A DNA stretch of 37,531 bases from a virus. The stretch spans positions 1 to 37,531 of IMG/VR virus record IMGVR_UViG_3300044534_000100. One strand, given 5' to 3'. Shown piece after piece: positions 4,565 to 28,175 of the stretch. The position numbers and the translations under genes were made by a program. Positions within the stretch are counted from its first letter, which is position 1. Each line of letters begins with the position of its first letter. The notes under the pieces are model-generated. The model saw nothing but the letters and a program-made list of their open reading frames with translations, had not been told where the DNA came from and ran no database searches.

Positions 4565-5875
4565 TTACCACTTCAATCCAAAATCTCTTTCATTATCGAC
4601 ACATAGGTACATAAACCCATCACAAGTATGGTCATCTTCCTTGATAACTTTAGGATCATCGCTCTGCAATGTTTTCTCATCCCACTGGTATTTCTCATGT
4701 TCCTTGATAAAGATCTCGTTCTCAGGGCGTTTCAGGTAGAAAAAGCGACCTTGTGCAAGTAAGTCCTGCACCCGGTCGATCATATCTACTTTCTTTAATT
4801 TCCTAACCTTATGCCAACGAATACCAAAGTCATTGTAAAACTGGTTATCCAATGCCCCTTCAGCAGAGTCCATAGTTAGCCGTGTGGGCTGTTTTCCGAT
4901 CCAGTTAGTGACTTTATCGATAAACTCTTTTAGATCCCTGGAAAGCTCACTCGGTGGCTTCTTGTGGGTCTTACCTTGTGGACTGTAGTAATAAGTATCT
5001 AGCAAGATTAAATTACCTTTCTTGGTCAATCCATAAGCACCACAAGTGGTTGCAGAAACTTCATGTCCCGTATCAACAGAATAATAAACATTAGTGATGT
5101 AATCATCTGTGGGTAATTTATCAATAGCTTGGAAGTTATCCATGTTATAGATATTAGTTCCAAGCCCGATAACTTCCCCAAGATACATCCAACGGTAATA
5201 GTCATAATTATTTTGCTTAACGGTATTGATTTCATCAATATAATCTTGTGACAAGATATTGGGAAGTGTGACGTCCTTATATGTAGAATGATCGACAAGC
5301 CAATTAGGCATCCCTTCTCGTTGTGTAGCCCATTCGTTAATCCATTCATAAGGATTTTTAGGCGGGTTGTAGCTATAATATGTAACAACGTGAGCGCCAG
5401 GTGGTAGCTGTTTACGAGTAAACGAGGCTCGTACCATATCAACCTCTTGCCAAGAATCAAACTCAGCTAATTCTTCAAACCAAAGATAACGTACATATCC
5501 ATGCGCTATAATCATTGATTTTAACTTTTGCGGGTCATCAACTCCGCTAAAATAGAAAGCCGTTCCGTTGCGTTTATCAACAATTCGATACGGTGATTTT
5601 TTGAACTCAAAAAGGCTATCTACATGCAACATGTAAATGGCCCATTTAATCTGTTCATAAACTGACAACTCAATCGTATTGGCGACCTTACGCATAATTA
5701 AAACGTTAGCCTGTGAATCCTGTAAAAAATCCATCACTAATTGAATACTAATTACAGAAGACTTAGTAGATCCACGCCCACCTTTTAGAACCTTATTTAA
5801 GCAATGAGAAAACAGTATTCGATCAAAATGAGGGCATATCATGTTGTCAGCATTAATTGTTATTTGCTTCTTCAT
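4565..5875 (-). CDS. terL: Terminase large subunit
   Basis: Walker A motif GGRGSTKS, a length of 436 aa, and a position between terS and the portal gene. Confidence 0.85.
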   Translation of the reverse strand: MKKQITINADNMICPHFDRILFSHCLNKVLKGGRGSTKSSVISIQLVMDFLQDSQANVLIMRKVANTIELSVYEQIKWAIYMLHVDSLFEFKKSPYRIVDKRNGTAFYFSGVDDPQKLKSMIIAHGYVRYLWFEELAEFDSWQEVDMVRASFTRKQLPPGAHVVTYYSYNPPKNPYEWINEWATQREGMPNWLVDHSTYKDVTLPNILSQDYIDEINTVKQNNYDYYRWMYLGEVIGLGTNIYNMDNFQAIDKLPTDDYITNVYYSVDTGHEVSATTCGAYGLTKKGNLILLDTYYYSPQGKTHKKPPSELSRDLKEFIDKVTNWIGKQPTRLTMDSAEGALDNQFYNDFGIRWHKVRKLKKVDMIDRVQDLLAQGRFFYLKRPENEIFIKEHEKYQWDEKTLQSDDPKVIKEDDHTCDGFMYLCVDNERDFGLKW

Positions 5876-6347
5876 TTTCTATGCTCCTATCATTTCTAAC
5901 TATATTGATTGTTAAGTCATCCGTTACATCATTACTCAATTGTTCAGCCTTACGTTCTGCAATATCTGCCTCAGCGTTAGCCTTGCGAATCTTGGCTTTG
6001 TCTAACTCTGGTGTGCTATTATCTGACAACATACCAGAAAGCTTCAAAATTGAGTTGGCAGCTTGAAGCTGAACCATTTCAGACTTAGCGCTTAGTAGGC
6101 TATTAAGTTTTCGGATTGCATTGCTTTCATAATCCTTTTTTATTACAACATGTTTATATGCATCCTGTCCCTTTTTAAATTTTGGGTCATTCTTCCATTT
6201 AGCAAGTGTACGTCTTGTTCGATTCACATTTTCAGCTATCTGTTCATCGTTTAACTCATCTTCAAACAGCATAACAATAGCGTCGCGACGTGGCTTATCC
6301 AATGAATAAAAATCGTCATATTGTGAATTTTTGTGAACTTCTGTCAT
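5853..6347 (-). CDS. terS: Terminase small subunit
   Basis: 164 aa with an N-terminal HTH-like region. Its end overlaps the terL start by 23 nt. Confidence 0.65.
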   Translation of the reverse strand: MTEVHKNSQYDDFYSLDKPRRDAIVMLFEDELNDEQIAENVNRTRRTLAKWKNDPKFKKGQDAYKHVVIKKDYESNAIRKLNSLLSAKSEMVQLQAANSILKLSGMLSDNSTPELDKAKIRKANAEADIAERKAEQLSNDVTDDLTINIVRNDRSIENEEANNN

Positions 6348-7599: not shown

Positions 7600-7610
7600 C
7601 AGCTATCTAA
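7600..7610. repeat. CAGCTATCTAA motif, copy 1 (flanked by CTCTCT)
   Basis: Identical 11-mer at 7676..7686, 76 bp away. Both copies have a CTCTC-containing 5' flank. Confidence 0.6.
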
Positions 7611-7675
7611 TTGCGGTCCAACTTGTCCCCTTAAAACAGTGGGCCAACTCGGCCCCTGCTCTCTCAAGCTATATT

Positions 7676-7686
7676 CAGCTATCTAA
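7676..7686. repeat. CAGCTATCTAA motif, copy 2
   Basis: Identical to 7600..7610. It abuts the terminator at 7685..7708. Confidence 0.6.
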
Positions 7687-7708
7687 AAAAGGCCAGCCGA
7701 AGCTGACC
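7685..7708 (-). terminator. Strand-specific intrinsic terminator with a C(UUCG)G tetraloop
   Basis: Read on the minus strand: GGTCAGC-UUCG-GCUGGCC followed by UUUUUU. The single imperfect pair is a G-U wobble on minus but a C-A mismatch on plus. Confidence 0.6.
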
Positions 7709-7860
7709 AGATTGATATGAGCGATACGTTAATCTTGAACCACTCGTTGAAATGATGCGAATCGCTCGTCCAAGGCGAAGTGTTAACTAATCGAGAGTAG
7801 GCTTTCTACACCTTCCTTTCATCAACGTTTGTAAAATAGGTGACGCCTTGAAAGCTAAGA

Positions 7861-7880
7861 GCCAGGAGTCGAACCTGAGC
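7861..7880 (-). ncRNA. T-loop-type hairpin (GC(U)CAGG-UUCGACU-CCUGGC) inside the large RNA
   Basis: Carries a TPsiC-like 7-nt loop. I could not build a complete cloverleaf around it. Confidence 0.4.
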
Positions 7881-7961
7881 TGTGCGCGGAGGCAAATAAA
7901 ACCGTGCCCTACCGAGGACCATTAGCGTGCTTGCGAGGTCCGTGAAGATTTGCAAGCTAAT

Positions 7962-8046
7962 TGCTGACGGGCGGAATCGAACCGCCTTCTCTGGGAAAAT
8001 AATCTGACCTAAAAAGCCCAGCTGCCTGCCATCGGCCCACGTCAGC
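7962..8046 (-). ncRNA. tRNA-like element: canonical acceptor, D and T arms but a 21-nt anticodon loop
   Basis: Segment lengths 7/2/4/7/4/1/5/21/5/4/5/7/5/7 sum to exactly 84 nt. The acceptor is GCUGACG/CGUCAGC, the T arm is GGCGG-UUCGAUU-CCGCC, and the D loop is GAUGGCA. Confidence 0.5.
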
Positions 8047-8511
8047 ATATAATCAGGATCCTCGTCTCTGCTTACGGTTACCGTTTTCCGCCGGTCCCTT
8101 GGGCAGTACTGGTGTCCTGATAGTGTGATCCTCTAGCCGTTGAATGAGATCACGGATTCTTCTGCCTTAGCACGGCTGTGCCTGAGACTATCATGAGCGG
8201 CACGTTGAGGTATTGTTATGGTTGACGCTCATCATATTTACGTTGTTTGAAATCTCTTGAAAGGAGGTCGAATTCTTACATCGGATTCATCAAGAATGTC
8301 CCATCGATAGTCTCAATGCGGGGGTATGGTCATCTGCCACCACGTTCGTCGGCTTGGTTACCGGCTCCCCACCGCTTGCGCTAGACCTGAGTTGCTGTGA
8401 ATATACGTCAGACGTCTAGCGCTGTTAGTTTATTTTGGGAGTAAGTAGTTTAAGGGCTTGCTCAGGTCACGTTTTCGGGTATGTCGCAATTGATAATCTT
8501 TCGACGATACC

Positions 8512-8517
8512 AATATA
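8512..8517 (-). promoter_or_regulatory. Candidate -10 (TATATT) of the activator-dependent late promoter
   Basis: Lies 21 nt downstream of the proximal CTGCAG repeat. No -35 is present. Confidence 0.3.
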
Positions 8518-8538: not shown

Positions 8539-8588
8539 CTGCAGGTTTACTGCAGAATTCCTGCAGATTTACTGCAGAAAAACTGCAG
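8539..8588. repeat. Five CTGCAG hexamers at exact 11-bp spacing (22-bp unit CTGCAGRTTTACTGCAGAAWWM); candidate late-activator binding array
   Basis: Hexamers start at 8539, 8550, 8561, 8572 and 8583. The array begins 3 nt after the arpU-like stop codon. Confidence 0.85.
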
Positions 8589-8591
8589 ACT

Positions 8592-9020
8592 TCATTTACT
8601 TACTCGAACATGATCATCTGGAATGATCTTCGCTGCTTCCCAAAGCGCTTCATTCTGGTAGTCATAGAACGTCCGCTCAGACAGCCCCAGTTTCATTCTG
8701 ACGGCCGTTACTGACCAGTGATGATGAACAAATCGGTCATCCAGAATCTGCTTGTAGGTCACATGCGCGTCGCCCTTGGAGGCAATGTAATCTAGGACCT
8801 CTTCTCTGACCTTCCACTCCCGTTCAGCGTTCACATAGTCGACAATCTTATAATCGGCATCGTATAGTGACCCCGTGGGCAGACCGTCCATGCTCGGTGA
8901 CCCAATCGTTGGTTTTTTCAGCCTTGCTTCATCTCTCCAGTCCCAGTACTGAGACAGCCACTTTCGTGCGGCCTCAATGCTTTTTTTCTTGTCGTATTTC
9001 CCGAAAATGTCATCAATCAC
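8592..9020 (-). CDS. arpU: ArpU-family phage late transcriptional activator
   Basis: 142 aa. The N-terminal pattern is FGKYDKKKSIEAARKWLSQYWDW. A C-terminal HTH-like TAVRMKLGLSERTFYDYQNEAL is present. The GTG start follows AAGGGG. Confidence 0.65.
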   Translation of the reverse strand: MIDDIFGKYDKKKSIEAARKWLSQYWDWRDEARLKKPTIGSPSMDGLPTGSLYDADYKIVDYVNAEREWKVREEVLDYIASKGDAHVTYKQILDDRFVHHHWSVTAVRMKLGLSERTFYDYQNEALWEAAKIIPDDHVRVSK

Positions 9021-9573: not shown

Positions 9574-9786
9574 CTATACAAATTCCTTAGGTTTTCTTTT
9601 CCACCATTGTGACCAGGCATAGCCTGCATGATCCATAAACTGTGCTCGCCGGATTTGCCGCTTACGAGTCCGTTTAATACCTGAAGGTAGTGCATAGCCA
9701 AGCAGTGTTGCCCGCACCCGCCGCCACACACTTGGAGGCATTCCTAGCTCAACTGATACACTGGTTTCGACCGGCATTGAATCCAT
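9574..9786 (-). CDS. Small basic protein (70 aa), hypothetical
   Basis: The ATG overlaps the pnuC-like stop (TAATG coupling). Confidence 0.4.
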   Translation of the reverse strand: MDSMPVETSVSVELGMPPSVWRRVRATLLGYALPSGIKRTRKRQIRRAQFMDHAGYAWSQWWKRKPKEFV

Positions 9787-10541
9787 TATTTAATTTCCTC
9801 CAATCCATCGTGCTTACGTCCACGGTTAAACCAAGGCGAAACTGTGAAGGCTAAAACATCGTTAGTCACATAAATCAGTGAATTAACCGCCATTGCGAGT
9901 GTGGCATCACCTTGTGCGAAAGTGACCGCCCATAAAATCAATTGGAAAATACCGGAAGCTAACCACCAGTAGTATTGGTTGTTGTAACGGAAGAAGCACA
10001 TTACACCGGCCGTTAAACTGATAGCAAAACTAATCGCATCAATCCATGGCCGTGGGTCATTGGTAAACCGACCAATTAAGTAACCCGAAACTAAGTAAAC
10101 GAGTAACGTTCCAGCAATCGCGATTAACCATTGCTTGCCACCGAATTTTCGTAAGTGGTTCTTTGTATCATTGTTCCATGAACGAATGGCAAAAATTACC
10201 GGAATATCAAGCGTGGCCACATAGGCTAACTGTTCAAAAATACTCAAATAATTCTTTGCTGACCAGCCGGCATAAATGAAGCATGCTGCACTGATTAAGC
10301 CTAGCCAACCGTTAATAGCTTTCGTAGCGTTAATTGCCAGTACACATAATGTTCCGAGCAGTGTTCCAATAAATGTAATCATTGTCACGCTGGTTACCTT
10401 AGCGCCAATTAGCAGGCACAATTGAAAACCAAACGCGAAAAACCATAGACAGTAATTCTGCACTGGCCAACCCTTTAACTGATTAACTAACCAAACGAAA
10501 TAATTTTCTTTCTTAGAATCCATATCCAACCAACCCTTCAT
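9786..10541 (-). CDS. pnuC: PnuC-family nicotinamide riboside transporter-like membrane protein
   Basis: About 7 TM segments. The W/N-rich pattern YNNQYYWWLASGIFQLILW...NSLIYVTNDVL resembles PnuC. The start may instead be the MDSKK codon at 10523. Confidence 0.6.
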   Translation of the reverse strand: MKGWLDMDSKKENYFVWLVNQLKGWPVQNYCLWFFAFGFQLCLLIGAKVTSVTMITFIGTLLGTLCVLAINATKAINGWLGLISAACFIYAGWSAKNYLSIFEQLAYVATLDIPVIFAIRSWNNDTKNHLRKFGGKQWLIAIAGTLLVYLVSGYLIGRFTNDPRPWIDAISFAISLTAGVMCFFRYNNQYYWWLASGIFQLILWAVTFAQGDATLAMAVNSLIYVTNDVLAFTVSPWFNRGRKHDGLEEIK

Positions 10542-15779: not shown

Positions 15780-16529
15780 TCATGCCTCCTGCAGAAACTT
15801 ATTGATAAAGTATTGCTGGCCCTTGCCAGTGACCTTCGTCGTGATCTGGACTGTCGTGTGCCCATCTGAGTGGGTCACGGCAGTCTCTTTCGTCTTGAAC
15901 AAGCCCAGCTCCATTGCGTACTGTGTTGGTACGTTGCGATTGCTGCCACGCTTGCCCAAGTAGCCGTTATCCCGCAGCCAAGCAAACAAACGATTCTGGC
16001 CAGTGTTTACACCGTTCTGGCGAAGCATCTTGGCAAGCTGACCAACGAGGATTGACGAGTTGCTCGTTGCCACTGCGTCAGCGAAGAGTGCCTTAGGCTT
16101 CATCTCGGCAATCTGCACGTCCTTGGCTTTCAACTGATCGGCGGCCTGCTGAAGCAAGTCAGCCAAGCCGTCCGCGTTATGGATGACGTTAAATGCCTTC
16201 TGGTCAGTCATGTAAGCACCATGCTTGCGGATTGCCGGGAGAACTTCGCTGGTGACCCAGTGTTTGAACTCTTTGGCTTGTGGCAGCTTGCTACCGAGAA
16301 TTAATGAGTACAGGCCCGATTCGTTGATCAAAATCGGAGCCGTTCCATTAACGGTGAACGATTCGTTCACCGTCTTATCTTCCTCATCAACATGATCCCG
16401 AATTGCTTTAGGGCCATTGGATTATTGAAGGATGTTGGTTATATCGCGTCCAACGAAATAAGGTTCGTTATTGATCATCACGGTTCGTACTTGCTGGCCG
16501 TGAAAATTGAATAGTTGTGGTTGATTCAT
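15780..16529 (-). pseudogene. Antirepressor (BRO-N + KilA-C type) interrupted by one in-frame TAA at 16422..16424
   Basis: The ATG at 16529 follows GGAGG. The reading is MNQPQLFNFHGQQVRTVMINNEPYFVGRDITNILQ*SNGPKAIRDHVDEEDKTV..., and the stop sits where BRO-N proteins have LGY. The downstream part (15780..16370) could reinitiate at a GTG. Confidence 0.6.
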
Positions 16530-26339: not shown

Positions 26340-26530
26340 TATTTTTCACCTCCTCCTAGTTGGTTTAATGCTTCATCGCTCAATCCTAAAGTACCGGTCA
26401 GATTATTTTGTTTCTTATCTAAGCCGTCAATAGCATCACCGATAATTGTAAAGTTCTCAATTAACTGTTTACGCAATTCTTGACCGTCTAGCGACAAGTC
26501 ATGAATGTGTAGTCTGTCCTTTATCGCCAT
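26339..26530 (-). CDS. Small structural-module protein (63 aa)
   Basis: The ATG at 26530 follows GAAGGGGA. It overlaps the end of Tal by 32 nt. Confidence 0.5.
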   Translation of the reverse strand: MAIKDRLHIHDLSLDGQELRKQLIENFTIIGDAIDGLDKKQNNLTGTLGLSDEALNQLGGGEK

Positions 26531-28175
26531 CTGTATCTTCCCCTTCTTCCGTACTCAACTTTAATTTGCCATCGTCACCAGCAGTTAAGGTATAAACTTT
26601 CCCATTAGGAGAGCGCAGTTGTAATCCATTAGTGGGTATGTCATCAGCCGTAACCGGCGGATTAATTTCGTGTGACTTACTACCACTATTACCATTACCG
26701 CTATGAATAGCCGTTCTTGCAGCATCATTTCGGTTACTCCATTCATCGGGGCCAAAAATCTTATTGCCAAATGTGATGGTATCGGTTTGAGTGGTTGTCG
26801 GGTCCTTATATTGAGTAAAGCTCTGAATACGCACATTCACATCAATTCCAAAACGATCACGCAACCATCCATTGTTACCAATTGCGATTTCGTTATTAAT
26901 CCCACTCAGATTATTTTTGAAACTTACCCAGTCCATTGTGTATTGAACATCTGGGTAATCGTGGAGTTGAGCCTTCATGGCATCTTTTAAGGCGTTCTCA
27001 TCTGTGATTGTGTCACTAGTGAACGGATCCGCCCAGATTTTGCCCCACTTCTTGTCATCCGCCATCGGACTATCATATTCGCCCTGACAGGTATATTGTG
27101 GCTGCTGGTCAGTCGTATCAGTTGTTGATGAATCATCAGAATCACCACTGCCTTGAACCTTAGCCGCCATTTGTGCATTTCTTACACCAAAAGCAGGTGG
27201 CCACGCATTAATTGCTTGAATAACTGTTCCTCGTTCTTCGTTAGCAGCCATTTCAAGCGTGTTGCTATCAAGCGCTAATGCAACGTGGTAAGTTGAACCT
27301 CTCGAACCCCAAAAGAGCATATCGCCCTCTTGATAAGGCGGACCAACTACTTGACCTTGATACTCTTCGTAAGTAGTCGGTTGATGCATCGGAATACCAA
27401 AATGATTATAAACATAAGCCACAAATCCAGAACAATCCCAGCCACTCGGTGAACTACCACCGTAAACATAAGGTACGCCAGCATACTGACGAGCAAATGA
27501 AGCTACTGCTCCACTACCACCACTAGAATCATCGCTACTAGTATCTTGCTCAATTTCTTTACCAGTACCTTTAATGGCTGTTTCAATCGTAGTGTAGTCT
27601 TCGTTAACCTGAATCTTTGAAGCGTTGACTTTGTCAATAAAGACAAAAGAGTTGTCTTTACCAATCTTGGTTGCTAAATGAATTGTGGTATTGTCAAACC
27701 AGAACTCAATACCAAAGGCTTCAGCAATTGAATTAAGCACATCATCACCATGTGCATTGCCTAAAGTGTCAGAACCAAAATCATGATCGCTAACGTTGCC
27801 ATCAATCGAATAACTGAACTTACTTCCCGATACTAAAAAATCACAGCAAGCCTTTAATGATTGACTACCTGTGATTGTGTTATCTAAATATAAATCGTGT
27901 AAGTCGTGAGCAATATGAATGGTTGTCACCGCATACACTCGGTACTTATTCGTTGGAACCGGGTTAGAAGTAGCGATGCGGTACTGTTGACCTGTTGTCG
28001 GATCAGTAATAATTGCCCGAGGAGCAATCATCTTTTCAGCTACTTCATTATCCTCATTTGCAATAAAGCTGAAGTTAAGTGTCGGATACGATTTTAACGT
28101 GTCAGTAACGGCTACATCATAAGCATGTACTGCTGTTACATCCCCTGCTGGTGAGCGAATTGGTAAACTAAGCAC
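26499..28175 (-). CDS. Tail-associated lysin (Tal) with an embedded NlpC/P60 endopeptidase domain
   Basis: Contains GVPYVYGGSSPSGWDCSGFVAYVY...STYHVALAL. The GTG start lies 8 nt after AAGGAG. The gene follows Dit. Confidence 0.75.
   Translation of the reverse strand: MLSLPIRSPAGDVTAVHAYDVAVTDTLKSYPTLNFSFIANEDNEVAEKMIAPRAIITDPTTGQQYRIATSNPVPTNKYRVYAVTTIHIAHDLHDLYLDNTITGSQSLKACCDFLVSGSKFSYSIDGNVSDHDFGSDTLGNAHGDDVLNSIAEAFGIEFWFDNTTIHLATKIGKDNSFVFIDKVNASKIQVNEDYTTIETAIKGTGKEIEQDTSSDDSSGGSGAVASFARQYAGVPYVYGGSSPSGWDCSGFVAYVYNHFGIPMHQPTTYEEYQGQVVGPPYQEGDMLFWGSRGSTYHVALALDSNTLEMAANEERGTVIQAINAWPPAFGVRNAQMAAKVQGSGDSDDSSTTDTTDQQPQYTCQGEYDSPMADDKKWGKIWADPFTSDTITDENALKDAMKAQLHDYPDVQYTMDWVSFKNNLSGINNEIAIGNNGWLRDRFGIDVNVRIQSFTQYKDPTTTQTDTITFGNKIFGPDEWSNRNDAARTAIHSGNGNSGSKSHEINPPVTADDIPTNGLQLRSPNGKVYTLTAGDDGKLKLSTEEGEDTDGDKGQTTHS

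Follow-up and report, generated by a model that had tools for sequence, protein, structure and literature searches.

What does a tRNA-like element that seems unable to decode do in a bacterial virus? The question is raised by the window, the 37,531-nucleotide stretch of DNA analyzed here (IMG/VR record IMGVR_UViG_3300044534_000100), which derives from a temperate gut-lactobacillus phage encoding an integrase, an antirepressor, a terminase and tail proteins. Relatives sharing its late activator protein carry the name Limosilactobacillus. Positions 7962–8046 of the minus strand fold like a tRNA, with 21 nt (7996–8016) in place of the anticodon loop. Non-decoding tRNA-like RNAs have been known in phages since species 1 and 2 of T4, and they are still without a function. 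The family to which the window element belongs, here family A, supplies natural variants that separate the parts that are needed (acceptor, T arm and leader) from those that are dispensable (the anticodon and often the D arm).

The element is a cloverleaf with an enlarged anticodon arm

The cloverleaf at 8046–7962 is real and better than chance. Re-reading the fold returned the segments given in a preliminary description of the locus: a 7-bp acceptor, a D arm, a 5-bp anticodon stem, a 4-nt variable region, a perfect T arm and A73, with CCA not encoded. The Rfam tRNA model matches over its full length (46.6 bits, E 5.2e-7), and ARAGORN reports a tRNA-??? with anticodon not found. The folding energy is unremarkable (z −1.3). 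The D arm consists of three pairs plus G10.A25. It was an overstatement that every segment except the loop is canonical, since position 14 is G rather than A and 15:48 is A:A. The canonical tRNA features that are present in family A are the 7-bp acceptor, the 5-bp T stem and a UUCRANY T loop.

The 21-nt loop of the window copy was assigned by hand. A class-II-like fold, previously considered weaker, is on energy the ViennaRNA minimum (−31.8 kcal/mol, versus −31.5 and −30.3 kcal/mol for the alternatives), and the stem of the long arm has a pairing probability of only ~25%. We prefer the long arm because of homologs, not energy. Specifically, the copy in phage record L233 has an alignable U-rich 14-nt loop that is closed directly 5′ of the 4-nt variable region and is unable to adopt the class-II fold, and variants from L. 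reuteri phages share this long-arm geometry. An 80-aa open reading frame through the element (7806–8048) was rejected as a gene: it has no PHROG match, is stopped at codon 4 in the related record L186, and gives unrelated translations elsewhere.

Family A is conserved in late leaders of Limosilactobacillus phages

The window element belongs to a conserved family found in the late-transcript leaders of Limosilactobacillus temperate phages, and it is frequent among Limosilactobacillus prophages. Scanning with patterns and looking up loci anchored on proteins yielded 36 distinct variants with interiors of 25–57 nt. The pattern had no match in a class sample of 61 genomes, and no plasmid match was found. 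In GenBank records, for example LR1 and LR2, family A carries no annotation, and no description of it turned up in the mainly open-access literature searched.

An alignment of 27 full-length variants places 93% of cells in pairs, and both partners change in 11 of the 21 pairs, counts that overstate independence because the source phages are kin and recombining. Pairing reaches 100% in the T stem and 97% in both the D stem and the acceptor, compared with 31–57% in slid controls. Compensatory pairs may also have arrived as whole arms from real tRNAs. Acceptor pairs 1–3 and 5 are invariant, A73 is nearly fixed and the D-loop GG is retained in full-length copies; pair 6–67 is mismatched in 6 of the 27. 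The anticodon arm is the free part, and its loop measures 8–21 nt in full cloverleaves, never 7. Comparison with homologous phages upholds the cloverleaf, with stems conserved and the loop variable.

To gauge constraint without circularity, a set of leaders was picked without using the element, through the activator protein or a conserved leader motif (8347–8364, minus strand, in the window); 30 were collected and two unrelated ones removed. Family A occurs in 24 of the remaining 28, and all 24 copies have a canonical T loop and UAU at −3 to −1 (8047–8049, minus strand, in the window). The D arm is missing in 10 of the 24. This D-armless form is 56–57 nt long and has a single arm with a 5-bp stem, a 7-nt loop and C at position 37. 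Unannotated D-armless elements of 56–57 nt are also present in LR1 (L259, 13995–14052) and LR2 (L260, 30502–30558), where the 7-nt loop is centered on GAA or AAA. Four unbiased leaders are without family A, and that of record L064 is without any look-alike. In record L209 the copy, ~625–710 nt behind the anchor motif and just before terS, was fused to another element by recombination inside its T loop, and the 3′ acceptor strand is gone.

Family A almost certainly does not decode, as had been suspected from the window copy. A 7-nt anticodon loop with U33 and a purine at 37 is absent, the loop being 21 nt in the window and 8–20 nt in the other full-length variants, and the core bases A14 and R15:Y48 of a decoding tRNA are replaced in the window copy as described above. 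The best BLAST match of one L. reuteri variant is a T4-type phage tRNA-Thr (72–74% over the whole gene), and on this sequence similarity descent of family A from a phage tRNA-Thr is likely. The idea of a tRNA with a mini-insertion did not hold, nor does an intron-containing tRNA fit, as inserts vary from 1 to 14 nt and in position and have no Rfam intron match. A proposed link between the UUA triplet in the loop and an in-frame TAA in the antirepressor gene (16422–16424, minus strand) also falls: the codon is Tyr in relatives carrying the same element, UUA is not preserved in their loops, and the TAA probably reflects either a nonsense change private to this phage or an error in sequencing. 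For annotation, ARAGORN tRNA-??? calls in these phages, and some Thr calls, do not denote decoders. One such gene, at 5337–5420 of L186, is called tRNA-Thr but folds with a ~20-nt anticodon loop like that of the window element, and is probably mis-annotated.

The leader is a mosaic of stem-closed units

On the minus strand, the element is found between a transcriptional activator gene (phrog_248, 8592–9020), located 5′ of the leader and presumably ArpU-like, and terS (5853–6347) downstream. Five CTGCAG boxes spaced 11 bp apart (8539–8588) are probable activator sites, and a candidate extended −10 late promoter follows at 8504–8512, with similar sequences seen by eye in relatives. An intrinsic terminator-like hairpin (7685–7708) ends the array, and this stretch would form a single late leader transcript of ~800 nt.

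This leader is a row of stem-closed units with 2–6 U/A-rich bases between them. In the window, a first predicted unit (8384–8468) precedes the anchor motif, a divergent Lacto-phage-1 RNA (RF03004, 8125–8201; 41.6 bits, under the 50-bit cut-off, with 64–98 bits in relatives) and a 4-bp hairpin (8080–8095), all four pairs of which are compensatorily swapped in L186. Behind the family A copy come a small hairpin spacer (7929–7957), a second tRNA-like element (7853–7926) and a hairpin module, M1 (7770–7851), all on the minus strand. The second element has an intact T arm, an 8-bp acceptor with one mismatch, a short D arm and a long loop, and was detected by neither ARAGORN nor Rfam. It resembles family B, a component of the majority of leaders in L. 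reuteri phages that frequently has C56U, and constraint in the array is therefore loose. Four families of look-alike (A–D) place several unrelated acceptor sequences within one array.

Leaders are composed of tRNA look-alikes, hairpin modules and, in the L186 group, one real tRNA, and these units vary in presence and order. L186 is 100% identical to the window over 234 nt upstream; the D/anticodon interior of its family A copy differs. It has additional units, namely a hairpin module and a tRNA-Gln(UUG) between family A and the spacer and another long-loop look-alike, which were gained or lost exactly at the short U/A spacers. This tRNA-Gln is the only normal tRNA among the unbiased leaders. 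Family B precedes family A in L. reuteri phages, and the order is reversed in the window and L233. Top-half motifs (acceptor plus T arm) occur at 1.3 per kb in leaders versus 0.002 per kb elsewhere, for loci that were partly selected. Rfam searches of the window and 28 related loci returned only tRNA and Lacto-phage-1. The cargo next to the leader also varies: HicAB (L186, 6033–6671) and RelB/YafQ (L202, 3306–3868) toxin–antitoxin pairs adjoin it in relatives, and the window has different cargo there. Elsewhere, the window encodes a PnuC-like nicotinamide mononucleotide transporter (phrog_1880, 9786–10541, minus strand).

Two kinds of hairpin recur as passengers directly behind look-alikes. 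M1 and M2 (M1 in the window; L194 5017–5095 and 5186–5270) are hitherto undescribed, are 75–85 nt long and have covarying closing stems (7–8 bp in the window's M1) and a purine-rich, SD-like core; no Rfam match and no conserved ORF were seen for either. At the DNA level M1 starts 2–3 nt past the acceptor strand in 27/27 distinct cases, behind families A, B and D, a count inflated by the many M1 loci fetched via the family A pattern. M2 shows this 2–3-nt spacing in 26 of ~32 cases, and 4 of the remainder follow a degenerate look-alike. About a quarter of family A copies are without M1 behind them, so family A does not require the passenger.

A processing handle is the best reading

We consider it about an even chance that family A serves RNase P/RNase Z as a handle and thereby punctuates a precursor of small RNAs, and this is the best reading of the sequence comparisons. 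A phage-type tRNA gene, closest to tRNA-Thr, would have lost decoding and persisted because of its tRNA top half and elbow. The element would be transcribed within the late leader, as a single unit among others, and then cut by host RNase P at 8046 and by RNase Z after A73 at 7962. These cuts would free the look-alike, probably CCA-added and stable, and would also give the neighboring hairpin RNAs exact ends. What the sequences show is the structure, its pattern of conservation, the synteny, the modularity of the array and the spacing to passengers, from which transcription, cleavage and the role of the products are inferred.

What bacterial RNase P recognizes is the acceptor/T helix together with the T loop and elbow, U(−1) and A(−2) (PMC4919922). 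The parts conserved in family A match this list, which is why we favor a handle, and the UAU leader fits the A(−2)/U(−1) preference of the B. subtilis enzyme. On the 3′ side, the window element has A73 followed by non-C bases, with no CCA, as suits a substrate of B. subtilis RNase Z. The fixed spacing of M1 behind three different look-alike families, and the gain or loss of units exactly at the spacers, also speak for a handle. Weighing against a handle are the mismatches at pair 6–67, the loss of the acceptor strand in L209, C56U in family B and the family A copies without M1. As a plain hairpin suffices for RNase P, the D-loop GG may have been retained for a different reader. The preliminary description had proposed such a handle for the release of a large RNA; on comparative grounds the handle survives, but it would punctuate an array of small units rather than release a single large RNA.

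A more ambitious extension, which we put forward tentatively and think doubtful as it stands, is that these phages run a tRNA-punctuated small-RNA operon in which interchangeable look-alikes release passenger effectors (M1, M2 and Lacto-phage-1) in late infection. If true, the passenger hairpin RNAs would be late effectors, for example against host defense or translation, and the operon would be a bacterial-virus counterpart of the herpesviral TMERs.

Alternative readings

The main rival, although we regard it as rather unlikely, makes the freed look-alike the end product: abundant in late infection, it would act as a decoy or mimic toward host factors that recognize the acceptor end or the elbow. 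Targets might be tRNA-modifying toxins or tRNA-cutting abortive-infection effectors, with the altered loop making the RNA uncleavable or non-decoding. Invariant acceptor pairs 1–3 and 5 and a near-fixed A73 are more than processing needs, and this reading would also account for the retained D-loop GG, for near-identical phages that differ mostly in the D/anticodon interior, and for family A copies that have no M1 to release. Toxin–antitoxin genes lie near the leader in relatives, but such genes are common cargo of the region. No candidate target was identified, the invariant acceptor may reflect recent common descent only, and the unrelated acceptor sequences of families A–D share one array. 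The decoy is compatible with the same processing, which would then be only its biogenesis. LR1 and LR2 are resident in L. reuteri ATCC PTA 6475, a harmless and genetically tractable strain, which makes the choice between handle and decoy directly testable.

It is less probable still that family A is a decaying tRNA pseudogene, hitch-hiking in a recombination-prone moron region with its pairing maintained by arm exchange with real tRNAs. The arrays do grade from a genuine tRNA-Gln into units that have an enlarged loop, lack the D arm or have a degenerate T loop, the family is missing from four unbiased leaders (and L064 has no look-alike at all), family B often has C56U, and the arms could derive from real tRNAs. 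Yet none of the related leaders yielded an intact decoding ancestor, the T loop is broken in 0/24 copies of the unbiased set, and each of the four stems shows turnover of paired alleles alongside a loop that remains non-canonical.

We give little credence to the idea that the tRNA fold serves to present an antisense loop, much like the C4 RNA of P1/P7, which RNase P matures. The last 14 nt of the window loop perfectly complement late mRNA from the tail region (26396–26409, minus strand; p about 0.005–0.015 against shuffled and genomic controls), and 12 nt match again at 26906–26917 (minus strand). However, the duplex energy is not exceptional (2/20 shuffles are as good), and seven other phage records, searched with their own arms, have no such match, the longest being 9–11 nt (p 0.24–0.98). 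One genome in eight is about the multiple-testing expectation, and the 14-nt complement is probably chance.

More improbable again is that the element is a tertiary domain of a single large ornate RNA of the GOLLD/ROOL class spanning 7685–8505. GOLLD and ROOL RNAs are located near tRNAs in prophages (PMC5737381), and the region is ORF-free and structured. No GOLLD or ROOL match was obtained, however, in the window at E ≤ 1 or in the 28 related loci at the gathering score, and the presence and order of units vary between phages. The earlier placement of the element inside a large RNA is not supported, and its reading as a structural T-loop module of such a fold is disfavored. Least credible of all is that the element still decodes. 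It might do so either in the class-II-like fold, as a +1 frameshift reader whose 8-nt loop is CU-UUUU-AG, or as a suppressor of TAA, perhaps once a 14-nt insert has been removed. The class-II-like fold is indeed the energy minimum, and for the identical copy in L188 the intron mode of ARAGORN suggests Lys(UUU) with an intron of 14 nt. Against this, fold, triplet and insert length are all unconserved, the acceptor is Thr-like rather than Lys-like, the core has the non-canonical G14 and A15:A48, relatives have Tyr in place of the antirepressor TAA, and bacteria are not known to have a general short tRNA-intron endonuclease.

Comparison with known systems

Judged by sequence, family A falls outside decoding tRNAs, intron-containing tRNAs, GOLLD/ROOL RNAs and C4-type RNAs. 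The C4 antisense RNA of P1/P7 is a phage small RNA matured by RNase P (cited in PMC4919922); family A has no Rfam C4 match and no conserved complementary target (a complement in the window only, and in 0/7 other records). The phage tRNA-Thr(UGU) of T4-like phages is near-identical to the L. reuteri variant in acceptor start, D arm and T arm, whereas family A has an enlarged anticodon arm in which the GU anticodon core is not in register, and does not encode CCA.

The closest likenesses in proposed function are the t-elements of plant mitochondria, together with tRNA-Other of B. cereus. The mascRNA and the herpesviral TMERs are of the same kind as t-elements, being tRNA-like, non-decoding and proposed or shown to direct RNase P/Z. 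The t-elements are non-decoding tRNA-like structures proposed or shown to direct RNase P/Z cuts and so set the ends of adjacent RNAs (PMC1920247), and family A likewise preserves the acceptor/T helix and the T loop but offers no usable anticodon. The t-elements, mascRNA and TMERs are organellar or eukaryotic, whereas family A, a putative cleavage substrate, sits in a phage late leader. tRNA-Other, a tRNA-like pseudo-tRNA in a mobile region of a Firmicute, takes no part in translation and occurs within longer RNAs (PMC3399842). It is a single copy flanking a genomic island and affects host physiology, whereas family A is part of an array inside phages, far from the integrase.

Other tRNA-like elements were noticed in further phages. 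At 520–626 of record L276, a site near-identical to Enterococcus SAP6-like phages, an unannotated acceptor-plus-T-arm element has a 75-nt interior; it shares a short stretch with T4 rnaC, and the same T arm is matched in ~60 Enterococcus phages. A GC-rich unrelated phage (L042, 2310–2393) contains several tRNA-like hairpins, one of them a cloverleaf that shares the acceptor of family A and has a loop of 20 nt, and a large tRNA array in L055 includes an odd gene (7602–7680) in which an Arg(ACG) arm lies directly 3′ of the acceptor strand.

The closest likeness in how family A works is to rnaC and rnaD of T4 (species 1 and 2), which are phage-encoded, late-expressed, located in a tRNA cluster and of unknown function (PMC3014915, PMC9697503). 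A tRNA top half with a non-canonical interior in a phage tRNA cluster is found both in rnaC, which passes the same acceptor-plus-T-arm test with a 60-nt interior, and in the window array. No sequence homology with rnaC or rnaD was shown, and the BLAST matches in T4 fall on tRNA-Thr instead. Unlike them, family A has a recognizable D arm and cloverleaf, belongs to temperate phages of Firmicutes and has recurring hairpin modules behind it.
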